A stretch of 64,000 nt of DNA, from contig OY970342.1 of the NCBI GenBank assembly GCA_963717505.1, positions 2,048,001-2,112,000 on the forward strand, in the 5' to 3' direction. Origin of the DNA: Candidatus Eiseniibacteriota bacterium (lineage in GTDB: Bacteria; Eisenbacteria; RBG-16-71-46). The notes beneath the pieces are model-generated. The model saw nothing but the letters and a program-made list of their open reading frames with translations. It was not told the DNA's origin and ran no database searches. A program made the translations under genes and the position numbers. Below are positions 43,835 through 46,688 of this stretch, piece after piece (position 1 is the stretch's first letter; every line of letters starts with the position of its first letter).

Positions 43835-43863
43835 TTGACTCGCGGGAACCCCCGGGACAGAAT
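43835..43863 (+). promoter_or_regulatory. sigma70-like promoter upstream of aro-cmoA-ICMT operon
   Basis: TTGACT-17-CAGAAT. Confidence 0.55.
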
Positions 43864-43927
43864 CGCCGCAGAAGCTCTTCCGGCGGCCTCGGCGGCCCAC
43901 CTGGCGGGTGCGCTGCGCACCGTCGGC

Positions 43928-45097
43928 ATGGTTCGAACCCTATCTCCAACGGCGAATGTGACTGAATCTAAGGGTGCCCCGGTATCGCTGAGCGCGCTCC
44001 GGAACGAGATCGACGATCTCAACGAGCGGATCCTCGAACTGTTGCAGTCGCGCGGCGAAATCGTGATGCGCATCGCCGAGACCAAACGCATCCACGACCT
44101 GGCCGCGTACGACCCCCGCCGCGAAGCCGAGATGTTGAACCACCTGATGCACCGGATGACCGGCGCATTCGGCCCCGATGAGATCAGGGAAGTGTTCCAG
44201 GCGATCTTCCGGGCTTCGCTCGACATCCAGGACCGCGAACGGCGCCGGGGCCTGCGCGTGTTGTCCAAAGGCATCGTCCCGCCGGGAGGGATTCGAGTCG
44301 GCAACGTCTCGGTCGGCGGTGGTGTTCCCGTGCTGTTCGCCGGGCCTTGCTCGGTCGAGACGGCGGAACAAATGGACGCCATCGCTTCGTTCCTCGCGGG
44401 GCTGCCGGTGCAGAAGATCCTGCGCGCCGGGGCATACAAGCCGCGCACCAACCCGTATTCCTTCCAGGGGCTGCGCGAGGAGGGGCTGCACATCCTGCGC
44501 GCGGCCGGCGACCGCTACGGCCTGCCAGTCGTGACCGAAGTGCTCGACACCTCGACCTTGGATGCCGTGGCGGCGTCGGCCGACATGGTGCAGATCGGCG
44601 CCCGCAACATGTACAACACCGAGCTGCTCAAGGCCGTCGGCAAGCTCGAGAAGCCGGTGCTGCTCAAGCGCGGCTTCATGGCCACGATCGAGGAGCTGCT
44701 GCTCTCGGCCGAGTACATCGTGGCCGCCGGCAACCCGGCGGTCGTCCTGTGCGAGCGCGGCATTCGCACGTTCGAGAATCAGACGCGCTTCACGCTCGAC
44801 ATTTCTGCGATACCGTTGCTCAAGCAGGAAACGGCCCTGCCGGTGATCGTGGACGTGAGCCACGCCCTGGGCCGGCGCGACATCCTGCTGCCGTGCGCCC
44901 GGGCCGCGATGGCCGCGGGGGCCGACGGCCTGATGATCGAAGCCCACGTGCAACCCGACCAGGCGCTGTCCGATGGATTCCAGCAGGTCCGCCTCGAGGA
45001 CCTCGCCGCGATCGTCGAGGGCCTAGGCTGGGAAACCGTGCCGCCGGCCTCGAGCCGAGCCGCCCGGAACGCAACCGAAACCGCCATGGTGAGGTGA
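43928..45097 (+). CDS. Chorismate mutase (AroQ-type) - DAHP synthase (type I beta) fusion
   Basis: N-terminal LRNEIDDLNERILELLQSR..K; AGPCSVE, KPRTNPYSFQG, QIGARNM, CERGIRTF, DVSH; exact start uncertain. Confidence 0.9.
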   Translation: MVRTLSPTANVTESKGAPVSLSALRNEIDDLNERILELLQSRGEIVMRIAETKRIHDLAAYDPRREAEMLNHLMHRMTGAFGPDEIREVFQAIFRASLDIQDRERRRGLRVLSKGIVPPGGIRVGNVSVGGGVPVLFAGPCSVETAEQMDAIASFLAGLPVQKILRAGAYKPRTNPYSFQGLREEGLHILRAAGDRYGLPVVTEVLDTSTLDAVAASADMVQIGARNMYNTELLKAVGKLEKPVLLKRGFMATIEELLLSAEYIVAAGNPAVVLCERGIRTFENQTRFTLDISAIPLLKQETALPVIVDVSHALGRRDILLPCARAAMAAGADGLMIEAHVQPDQALSDGFQQVRLEDLAAIVEGLGWETVPPASSRAARNATETAMVR

Positions 45098-45101
45098 CCT
45101 C

Positions 45102-45888
45102 ATGCCCAAGACCGTCGGTGACGACCGACCCTCGATCACGACCACGCCCGAGACGGCCGATCGTGATCGCCTGTTCTCCGAACAACGCCGGCGCGTCGAT
45201 GACTTCGACTTCGGCGCCAAGACGGCCAACGTGTTCGACGACATGCTCGACCGCTCGGTGCCGTTCTATCAGGAAATCCAGAGGATGGTTGCCGAGCTGG
45301 CGGTCGACTTCGCCGAGGACGGCACGTCGATCTACGACCTGGGCTGCTCGACCGGAACCAGCTTCGTCCAGATCGCCGCGGGGCTGCCGGCAGGCGTCCG
45401 CGTGAAGTTCGTCGGCCTCGATTCCTCCAAGGAAATGCTCGAGAAGGCCGAGCGCAAGTTGAAGGACCATGCGTTCGGCCATGACTACGAGCTGCGCCAC
45501 ACCGACCTGAATGCCGGCGTGTCGATCGAGAACGCGTCCGTGGTATTGCTCGTGCTCACCCTGCAATTCGTGCGGCCGCTCCAGCGCGAGCGGATCATTC
45601 GCAGTGTGTACGAGGGGCTCACCGAGAACGGCTGTCTCATCCTGGTCGAGAAAGTCCTGGGTGAGAGCTCCGACTTCAACCGATTGTTCATCAACCACTA
45701 TTACGAGATTGAAGCGGCGCAACGGGTACAGCGATCTCGAGATCGCCCAGAAGCGCGAAGCGCTCGAAAACGTGCTGGTGCCCTACCGGCTCGAAGAAAA
45801 CAAGGAACTCTTGCAACGGCGCGGATTCCAGAACGTCGACGTGTTCTTCAAGTGGTACAACTTCTGCGCGATCATCGCGAAGAAATGA
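45102..45888 (+). CDS. cmoA: Carboxy-S-adenosyl-L-methionine synthase; one extra base near 45709
   Basis: [34 protein letters not shown], then after a frameshift [28 protein letters not shown]. Confidence 0.88.
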
Positions 45889-46688
45889 AGACCACGTCGG
45901 GCACCCACGCCACGGGAGTTGAGCCCGGCGGTACCGCGGTTCCCGAGGCGACAACCCGCCGGTCGCTGCTGGTCAGCATCGGTCATGTGCTGTTCCACTA
46001 CCGGAACGCACTGTTCCCGGTGACGTTCCTGCTGCTGGCACTGGCCTCACGCCCGATGCTGTTGGGTGGCGACCTGCGGACGGACGCGATCCTGGACGTC
46101 GTGGGGATCGCGATCGCACTGGCCGGGCAGGGGCTGCGCGCGGCGGTCATCGGACTCGCCTACATCCGGCGCGGCGGCAAGGAAGGCCGCATCCACGCCG
46201 ACACGTTGGTGACCGAGGGCTTCTTCGCCCACTCGCGGAACCCGCTCTACCTCGGCAACATGCTCGTCTACCTCGGCCTGTTCCTGGTGCTCAACTCGGT
46301 TCTCGGCTACGCGGTGGGCGTGCCCTTCTTCCTCTTCGCGTACATCTGCATCACGCGTGCGGAGGAGGACTACCTGCGCAGCAACTTCGGAGCGACCTAC
46401 GAGGAGTACTTCCGCCGCGTCCCGCGTTTCCTGCCGAAGCTCGAGGGTCTGGGCGCCACGACGCGCGGCATGCGTTTCGACTGGAAGCGACTCCTGCGCA
46501 AGGAATACGGCTCGACCTTCTCCTGGATGACGACCATGCTCGCGCTGCTCTACTGGGAGCGGGTGCGCAACCAGGGTGTCGCGGCTTCGCAGGGCGCCCT
46601 CGGGGCGGTGCTGGTGGCCTGGGCCGTGTTGTTCGCCGGCTATCTCGTCGTGCGGTATCTCAAGAAGTCGAAGGCCCTCCAGGACTGA
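45885..46688 (+). CDS. ICMT/PEMT-family integral membrane methyltransferase (LmtA-like)
   Basis: [44 protein letters not shown] overlap with cmoA stop. Confidence 0.85.

Follow-up and report, generated by a model that had tools for sequence, protein, structure and literature searches.

We analysed a 64,000-nt stretch (hereafter the window) of contig OY970342.1 from a Candidatus Eiseniibacteriota bacterium (assembly GCA_963717505.1, forward-strand positions 2,048,001 to 2,112,000), whose genome assembles into a single 4.16-Mb contig with a marker-gene completeness of 86.68%. The window holds a compact unit of three genes, encoding a fusion of chorismate mutase with 3-deoxy-D-arabino-heptulosonate 7-phosphate (DAHP) synthase, here CM-DAHPS, the carboxy-S-adenosylmethionine (Cx-SAM) synthase CmoA, and an integral membrane enzyme of the ICMT/PEMT fold (Table 1). 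A first-pass annotation had read the unit as a pathway in which prephenate is converted to Cx-SAM for use by the membrane transferase, and this interpretation gains support here from the linkage of the genes across bacteria, the association with chorismate mutase, the rarity of cmoB and a residue switch in the membrane enzyme. The layout it gave, three tightly coupled genes, stands as to positions, gap and overlap, as does its convergent gene closing the unit, which encodes an M1 aminopeptidase; the break in the cmoA reading frame, treated below, it missed. The promoter-like sequence it placed ahead of the unit was likewise located, and is the sole sigma-70-type match in 43500-47000, against 0.3 expected from shuffled sequence, a prediction by consensus match only. 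An Rfam scan of 43600-47000 at E ≤ 1 returned no RNA element.

Table 1. The three-gene unit and its boundaries, in window coordinates
Feature	Position	Strand	Basis
Promoter-like TTGACT-17-CAGAAT	43835..43863	+	Consensus match; within the 149 nt that separate the cassette from the ABC-2 permease gene upstream
Chorismate mutase/DAHP synthase fusion (CM-DAHPS)	43928..45097	+	NF009239, PF01817, PF00793
cmoA (carboxy-SAM synthase), two frames in the window	45102..45888	+	TIGR00740; starts 4 nt after CM-DAHPS
Single extra base within A-T-T, shifting the cmoA frame	45708..45710	+	DNA alignment with relatives; short-read contigs
ICMT/PEMT-fold integral membrane enzyme	45885..46688	+	PF04191; start in ATGA overlap with cmoA stop
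M1 aminopeptidase gene, convergent, closing the unit	46699-49356	minus	Open reading frame listing

CM-DAHPS matches NF009239 at 435.5 bits (cut-off 279), and comprises an AroQ-type mutase at residues ~20-101 (PF01817, CM_2, 68.6 bits over residues 24-101) and a type I-beta DAHP synthase (DAHPS) at ~122-366 (PF00793, DAHP_synth_1, 254.8 bits over residues 126-362). The domain order is that of the AroA(G)-type CM-DAHPS of Bacillus, Listeria and Geobacillus (3NVT, 5J6F), and the alignment is full-length to both structures, with 334 bits for 3NVT; those are housekeeping enzymes, however, whereas the window's is an accessory second copy tied to cmoA.

The cmoA gene is the only one in its genome. 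Codons 1-205 (45102-45716) match TIGR00740 positions 1-180 at 157.2 bits, and the last 62 codons, in the +1 frame (45700-45885), match positions 181-239 at 73.3 bits. Each piece is below the equivalog cut-off of 193.3 bits; jointly they cover positions 1-239 with no residues lost. Intact orthologues in the same phylum reach 237.6-256.7 bits, and CmoA relatives align with 4GEK over 243 residues. Arg199 of E. coli CmoA salt-bridges the carboxylate (PMC3663124), and an equivalent basic residue is present in the window's protein (K-R-R-N-G-Y). Among 60 linked CmoA sequences, 27 have Arg and 25 have Lys at the aligned position, the remaining 8 differing, and 48 have Arg at the position after it.

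Linkage of cmoA to the membrane gene and to chorismate mutase

Scanning one genome per species with the membrane-protein alignment gave 80 loci, in which neighbours were identified by tblastn with the window proteins. In 73 of these 80, both parts of cmoA immediately precede the membrane gene in the same orientation. Labels attached to the loci are Eisenbacteria, Gemmatimonadota, Acidobacteriota, Nitrospirota, Planctomycetota (including anammox genera), Myxococcota/'delta', Binatia, Bacteroidota, Verrucomicrobiota, Pseudomonadota, Cryosericota and Spirochaetota, the linked pair spanning a dozen or more phylum-level labels. All-against-all clustering of open reading frames (ORFs) yielded three widely shared real clusters, namely the membrane gene (80 loci), cmoA (73) and CM/DAHPS (32); other large clusters were rejected as antisense shadows in GC-rich DNA. 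The genes of this two-gene core often have overlapping or abutting ends, and no third transferase is conserved with them. Three of the seven unlinked loci are at contig edges, L022 beginning inside the 3' end of cmoA, and L031 and L091 inside the membrane gene; the other four are weighed further below.

The same arrangement was found in further samples. In Planctomycetota (301 genomes), cmoA adjoins the membrane gene in 8/8 loci, and in cultured carriers it lies directly upstream in 5/5, the replicon in each case being a large plasmid or a chromid (Gemmatirosa kalamazoonensis KBS708, Ensifer canadensis T173, Ensifer adhaerens, Rhizobium sp. T136 and Rhizobium sp. WYJ-E13). Within the family of a spirochaete-labelled metagenome-assembled genome (MAG), 9 of 12 further loci have a more divergent CmoA-like gene (134-151 bits) upstream. 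The linkage proposed from the single locus is thus conserved in each of these samples.

We sampled 121 genomes of the window's phylum. The membrane gene has strong orthologues in 8 of them (377-398 bits) and cmoA is present in 9, the two being side by side in 8; eight further genomes hold weaker paralogues only (115-133 bits) and have no cmoA. The ninth cmoA (G132, L115:4061-7218) lies between dCTP-deaminase-like and carbamoyltransferase genes, downstream of a B12-binding radical SAM gene, and may represent another, nucleotide-directed use of Cx-SAM.

CmoA might instead work with a transferase that has escaped recognition and acts on tRNA or some other soluble target, the membrane gene being merely co-transcribed, as would suit the tRNA-modification Gene Ontology term that the automatic annotation of PGAP gives to the rhizobial cmoA. 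We give this hardly any credence, since the adjacency is kept over so many phylum-level labels, through gene-order changes and fusions, and since strong orthologues of the membrane gene are found, within the 121 sampled genomes, only where cmoA is present.

CmoB, the tRNA carboxymethyltransferase, is rare among carriers. Its absence from the window, already noted in the first-pass annotation, extends to the whole 4.16-Mb genome, where Cx-SAM-using transferases were sought with the CmoB profile only (TIGR00452) and the best match has 28.9 bits against a cut-off of 275. Of 50 other carrier genomes, one exceeds this cut-off, a Methylococcaceae-labelled MAG (468.9 bits) in which the only cmoA adjoins the membrane gene and cmoB is on a different contig; a Leptospiraceae-labelled MAG comes near it (224.9 bits). 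A genuine cmoB elsewhere, then, does not account for CmoA in these genomes.

Chorismate mutase accompanies the pair in several arrangements: (i) a DAHPS-containing gene lies immediately upstream of cmoA in 18 loci, the match extending into the CM domain in 15, with L021 cut at the contig end and L060 and L061 matching in the DAHPS part only; (ii) a stand-alone CM_2 gene encoding 107-133 amino acids takes this position in 9 loci (L024, L025, L028, L033, L042, L045, L052, L069 and L083); (iii) CM-DAHPS is immediately downstream of the membrane gene in 3 loci (L040, L059 and L071); and (iv) a DAHPS-only gene lies 3-4 kb away in 2 (L054 and L068). Two Planctomycetota loci (L131 and L132) have the order ICMT-CM-cmoA. 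The window's genome encodes an additional CM_2 protein and an additional DAHPS besides the cassette fusion. Unfused DAHPS occurs in 43 of 45 other genomes of its family, in which CM-fused DAHPS is limited to three cassette carriers, the window's genome (G000), G218 and G224 (loci L013 and L014).

An exhaustive profile search of database proteins supplied unusually long members of the membrane-enzyme family, and 5 of the 10 scanned are fusions to a C-terminal CM_2 domain (P0192, P0212, P0214, P0216 and P0217). Each represents its own cluster, the records come from JGI/IMG, Logan, ENA and NCBI, one being a Phycisphaerales MAG protein, and all five bear the clade signature motifs described below. 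These predicted fusion proteins are the strongest single result for the mutase belonging to the unit. Together with the stand-alone upstream genes, and with the extra fused copy that only carriers have, they favour the idea of a dedicated prephenate supply. The caveat first attached to that idea, that the mutase domain might be mainly regulatory, is answered by the stand-alone genes, since a stand-alone mutase cannot be the regulatory domain of a DAHP synthase.

Of the window's family, 44 other genomes were sampled, and the membrane gene turned up in none. Shared synteny with same-family carriers was considered and rejected, as none of the window's flanking genes occur in L013 or L014. On the conjugative plasmid pT136b of Rhizobium sp. 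T136 (L119:4222-7802), the pair stands alone between two IS6-family transposase genes, in the manner of a composite transposon, and in the window GC content falls to 0.61 over cmoA from 0.66-0.72 around it. Taken together, the patchy occurrence, differing flanks, GC dip and IS6-flanked copy indicate a patchy, horizontally mobile accessory unit.

Fold and clade-specific residues of the membrane enzyme

The membrane enzyme matches PF04191 (PEMT) at 42.2 bits (cut-off 25). Its best NCBIfam match is TIGR04571 (LmtA), at 90.8 bits, with relatives at 73.6-105.1 bits, all far below the cut-off of 325; the match to NF045656 (MddA) is weak, at 17.9 bits. The protein atlas offered generic ICMT/PEMT clusters only, and no genome out of 41 in the family of G047 had an LmtA (TIGR04571) above cut-off. 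An AlphaFold model from a 72-row alignment is all-helical, with a predicted local distance difference test (pLDDT) score of 92.2 and a predicted template modelling (pTM) score of 0.87. Foldseek against the PDB places ICMT structures first (5V7P and 4A2N, probability 0.99-1.00, E ~0.02), followed by sterol and steroid reductases, with no match at E ≤ 0.001; the family profile matches both 4A2N and 5VG9 across the cofactor-binding core, at E 2.3e-8. Prediction of a complex between CmoA and the membrane enzyme (the L013 pair, 60-row alignments) scored 0.00, to which we give no weight either way. Of two further database proteins, P0248 and P0123, one is a family member with a C-terminal OmpA-family domain and the other has the membrane domain twice in tandem.

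The aligned 4A2N and 5VG9 contain R-H-P-x-Y ... E-E, which we take to be the canonical ICMT/PEMT cofactor motif. The window's enzyme departs from it in having Asn for His (R118-N119-P-L-Y), while E160-E161 is kept. The clade signature is R96-G-G-K99 with H116-S-R-N119-P-L-Y, and both R-N-P-x-Y and the upstream R-G-G are present in 144 of the best 150 family representatives. For comparison we set 83 linked genes against 9 cmoA-less paralogues, comprising eight from cmoA-less Eisenbacteria genomes and L099, the LmtA-closest homologue (183 bits on TIGR04571), which has no cmoA neighbour and adjoins an O-antigen ligase gene. Five positions separate the two groups, linked clade first: 96, invariant R against T; 114, F against Y; 119, N against H; 175, Y against W; and 181, R against A or L.

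In the alignment with Ma-ICMT (4A2N), F114 falls opposite Tyr121 and N119 opposite His126. A docking study of that structure, modest and computational, has Tyr121 holding the polar end of S-adenosylhomocysteine and His126 lining the cofactor cavity (PMC12643142). R96 belongs to a family-specific Y-I-x-R-G-G-K/R loop that the aligned ICMT sequences lack. In known Cx-SAM users, the extra carboxylate is bound through Lys or Arg, these being Lys91 and Arg315 in CmoB and an Arg in CmoX (PMC10491745, PMC12783734), and in an engineered CNMT the Y81R substitution provides an Arg for this carboxylate (PMC7496830). R96 is thus the obvious candidate for recognition of the Cx-SAM carboxylate; it would answer to the clade-specific Lys or Arg that the first-pass annotation looked for, being invariant in linked genes and replaced by Thr in cmoA-less paralogues.

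A quick maximum-likelihood tree (IQ-TREE) covered the rows of at least 200 amino acids, less L118, L022, L031, L091, L104, L049, L060 and L079. One branch with full support in the Shimodaira-Hasegawa-like approximate likelihood ratio test (SH-aLRT 100) parts the 9 cmoA-less paralogues from 89 rows, made up of all 84 linked genes and five signature-bearing unlinked genes nested among them. With all linked genes on one side of that branch, linkage to cmoA arose once, with a few later losses or relocations. G072 is an example, with a second, cmoA-linked copy of the membrane gene elsewhere in its genome.

We consider it distinctly unlikely that the membrane enzyme simply depends on SAM, as an O-methyltransferase of the ordinary kind, either methyl-esterifying a carboxymethyl group placed by another Cx-SAM user or linked to cmoA for some other reason. 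ICMT itself does methylate a carboxylate, four signature-bearing homologues occur in genomes without cmoA, and E. coli has a follow-up step for 5-carboxymethoxyuridine (cmo5U), namely CmoM (PMC12783734). Against this, the conserved core has two genes and no third transferase, the IS6 copies bracket the pair alone, substitutions of the R-H-P His and of the pocket Tyr are specific to the linked clade, and fusion to chorismate mutase makes sense only with dependence on a prephenate-derived cofactor.

Proposed pathway and the integrity of cmoA

We return to the reading of the membrane enzyme as a Cx-SAM-dependent carboxymethyltransferase, which on this comparative evidence we favour with moderate confidence. 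The unit would be a mobile cassette, passed on horizontally and complete in itself, that carboxymethylates a target at the membrane in three steps. First, the extra chorismate mutase/DAHP synthase would raise the supply of prephenate, as its family membership suggests. Second, CmoA would carboxylate the SAM methyl group at the expense of prephenate and so form Cx-SAM, a role to which equivalog-level membership and the conserved basic residue point. Third, the ICMT/LmtA-fold enzyme would take Cx-SAM instead of SAM, as linkage, fusions, phyletic pattern and the clade-specific residues of the cofactor region suggest, and would put a carboxymethyl group (+58 Da, one negative charge) onto an acceptor reaching the active site from the membrane.

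Several points weigh against this proposal. Four genomes hold a family member with the full signature and have no cmoA at E ≤ 1e-15: L055, L073 and L077, in which cmoA is reduced to a remnant of 32-33 codons from its 3' end, and L084, which has none of it; these are either incomplete MAGs, or cases of the enzyme working without Cx-SAM. The counts of co-occurrence overstate the number of independent events, related genomes not being independent. No chorismate mutase is nearby in about half of the loci (48/80). LmtA, the closest curated family, is said to be a SAM-dependent methyltransferase, in work ascribed to Boon Hinckley et al. in 2005. The case for a lipid as acceptor rests on family resemblance and neighbourhood. 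Lastly, the window's cmoA is not one intact frame, a +1 frameshift falling at ~45708-45710.

As to two of the cmoA-less genomes, L073 (labelled Solirubrobacteraceae, Actinomycetota) and L077 (labelled Binatia) have near-identical membrane genes (5965-6804) on tree branches of 0.005, identical ORF coordinates, and the 32-codon remnant in common, a likeness that suggests mis-binning or very recent transfer.

The frameshift stems from one extra base, the window reading GAGATTGAAG where an alignment with six relatives at the DNA level has GAGA-TGAAG or GAG-TTGAAG. Frame 0 continues without a stop into the membrane gene, giving an artificial 528-amino-acid CmoA-N::ICMT product (45102-46688), which is on public record as one protein, P0121, with methyltransferase and PEMT domains. 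Natural CmoA::ICMT fusions were sought among the longer proteins, and this frameshift product of the window was the only one to turn up. In other genomes, cmoA is a single open frame in the 60 loci with full cover, and a further locus, L049, has a stop. Public sequencing runs, which contained at most 0.15 of the sampled words in any run, are informative for the frameshift site only. There, the only two short-read contigs bridging the site, X1 record 1 (2 mismatches over 262 nt) and X7 record 14 (7 mismatches over 226 nt), are each one base short at 45709; a third contig, X3 record 9, stops at 45707, and its loose end carries the reading frame onward. The second DAHP synthase of the same genome (G000:C1:3496283-3497058) matches TIGR01361 in three pieces and three frames (positions 2-42, 42-100 and 98-259). 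Its two frameshifts point to an assembly with insertion/deletion errors, which fits a one-contig genome that is only 86.68% complete.

Should the frameshift be real, the cassette would be decaying and the pathway dead in this organism. The extra base in the window's sequence, the 528-amino-acid read-through product recorded by gene callers, and the failure to find the cassette in 44 other sampled genomes of the family all lean that way. We nonetheless regard decay as very unlikely, given the bridging short-read contigs without the extra base, one of them so close to the window's sequence, the lack of other defects, with both parts scoring fully on TIGR00740, and the paralogous DAHP synthase, with two frameshifts of the kind expected from assembly error. 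The cmoA frameshift is most probably such an error, and we have little doubt that the gene is intact in the organism; the cassette as a whole is accordingly judged probably functional in its own genome.

Acceptor, known systems and flanking genes

Hints on the acceptor point to the envelope. OmpR-type regulator/sensor-kinase pairs adjoin the cmoA-membrane gene pair in 7 MAG loci and in 3 of the 5 cultured loci, one sensor having a 2CSK_N domain. In Ensifer canadensis, a PAP2 phosphatase gene follows the pair, and the cmoA-less relatives sit among genes for ArnT-like PMT_2 proteins, GT2/GT4 glycosyltransferases and O-antigen ligase. A FabF-like beta-ketoacyl synthase gene lies directly downstream of the membrane gene in L053, L063, L066, L078 and L087, followed by a gene for an ArsA/ParA-like ATPase in L063 and L066, the two loci scanned for it. 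LmtA methylates lipid A 1-phosphate. By analogy, the acceptor could be the head group of an envelope lipid, with a phosphate or hydroxyl on lipid A, or on a glycolipid akin to it, as the likeliest site; this we put forward as a tentative suggestion and would not lean on it.

The same cassette logic could instead serve a small, membrane-permeant nucleophile (a thiol, sulfide, amine or selenide), the product being, for example, a thioether acid or a betaine-like compound. The ICMT/PEMT superfamily does contain small-molecule methyltransferases, such as MddA, an ICMT-family enzyme that methylates methanethiol and whose profile (NF045656) gives the weak match noted above. No lipid-synthesis gene is consistently linked either, as, cmoA and CM aside, every neighbour cluster is confined to 14 or fewer of the 80 loci. 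The match to LmtA (90.8-105 bits, near full length) is nevertheless far better than that to MddA, and the envelope-type regulators, PAP2 phosphatase and OmpA-domain fusion direct attention to the envelope, so that a small-molecule acceptor seems unlikely to us.

The broadest form of the envelope-lipid proposal has several parts: the first integral-membrane (ICMT-fold) carboxymethyltransferase and a fifth class of natural Cx-SAM user, encoded in a mobile cassette of two to three genes that makes its own cofactor from chorismate and SAM, carboxymethylates envelope lipids, and occurs both in many phyla of soil and sediment and on megaplasmids of rhizobia. As a whole we consider this evenly poised between right and wrong. 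If it is true, carboxymethylation extends to lipids or other membrane-accessible molecules; bacteria have a further envelope modification, +58 Da and anionic; the retention of cmoA in hundreds of cmoB-less genomes is explained; and cassettes beside PmrB/QseC-like two-component systems would allow regulated retuning of surface charge. The engineering of membrane alkyltransferases could take R96, F114 and N119 as a natural template. In annotation, a cassette-linked cmoA should not be labelled as a tRNA-modification gene by default. Ensifer adhaerens, Ensifer canadensis, Rhizobium spp. and Gemmatirosa kalamazoonensis are tractable cultured carriers, and E. coli makes Cx-SAM.

Cx-SAM was discovered in 2013. 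The literature consulted describes four natural acceptors for it, namely tRNA, a peptide thiol, a peptidyl-nucleotide and phage DNA, besides several engineered ones, and a 2015 paper on CmoB says of other biological acceptors that they 'remain to be discovered' (PMC4482062). The cassette shares its logic with CmoA/CmoB of E. coli (cmo5U34 in tRNA), where the same first enzyme, the Cx-SAM synthase, and a dedicated transferase are encoded adjacently. CmoB, however, is a soluble Rossmann-fold protein, whereas the candidate transferase of the cassette is an integral membrane protein of the ICMT fold, and the cassette has chorismate mutase as a part. TglE/TglF (3-thiaglutamate), MccS/MccB-CTD (microcin C-like) and phage CmoA/CmoX (5-carboxymethylcytosine) resemble it in placing a CmoA homologue beside a non-tRNA carboxymethyltransferase, and there a basic residue recognises the extra carboxylate (PMC10491745, PMC12783734). 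In the sources consulted, the known Cx-SAM partners are soluble, of Rossmann or C5-methyltransferase type, and act on peptides, nucleotides or DNA, none being membrane-bound; nor do these sources report a chorismate mutase linked to the known pairs, unlike the cassette.

On the side of the membrane enzyme, the closest curated family is LmtA of Leptospira, for which the match is near full length (profile positions 10-245 of 252 in some members) and includes two C-terminal helices absent from ICMT. Cassette enzymes nonetheless score far below the family cut-off, as given above, and LmtA-like paralogues differ from them in having the canonical R-H-P, Thr96, Tyr114 and no cmoA neighbour. With ICMT/Ste14 (Ma-ICMT 4A2N and beetle ICMT 5V7P), the cassette enzyme shares a cofactor core of R-x-P-x-Y, the EE pair and a C-terminal R-x-x-P; it differs in the Asn for the R-H-P His, the Phe for Tyr121 of Ma-ICMT, the R-G-G-K/R loop and ~80 extra C-terminal residues. 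The comparison implies no prenyl-protein system for the cassette. A literature search, with most subscription journals and supplements outside its reach, found no description of CmoA paired with an enzyme of ICMT or phospholipid-methyltransferase type, nor of lipid carboxymethylation from Cx-SAM. What is known, then, is the two-enzyme logic of Cx-SAM use; the candidate ICMT-fold transferase in the membrane, the built-in supply of prephenate and the suggested substrate class are new.

Among the neighbouring genes, one for a DrrA-like ATPase occurs no more than 6 kb from the pair in 7 of the 80 loci, at varying distance and on either strand, perhaps by chance. That of the window (41060-42061) forms, with two ABC2 permease genes, an ABC-2 exporter operon upstream of the cassette, and the segment directly 5' of the cassette (40149-43778) encodes this exporter and a class I methyltransferase (Methyltransf_23).

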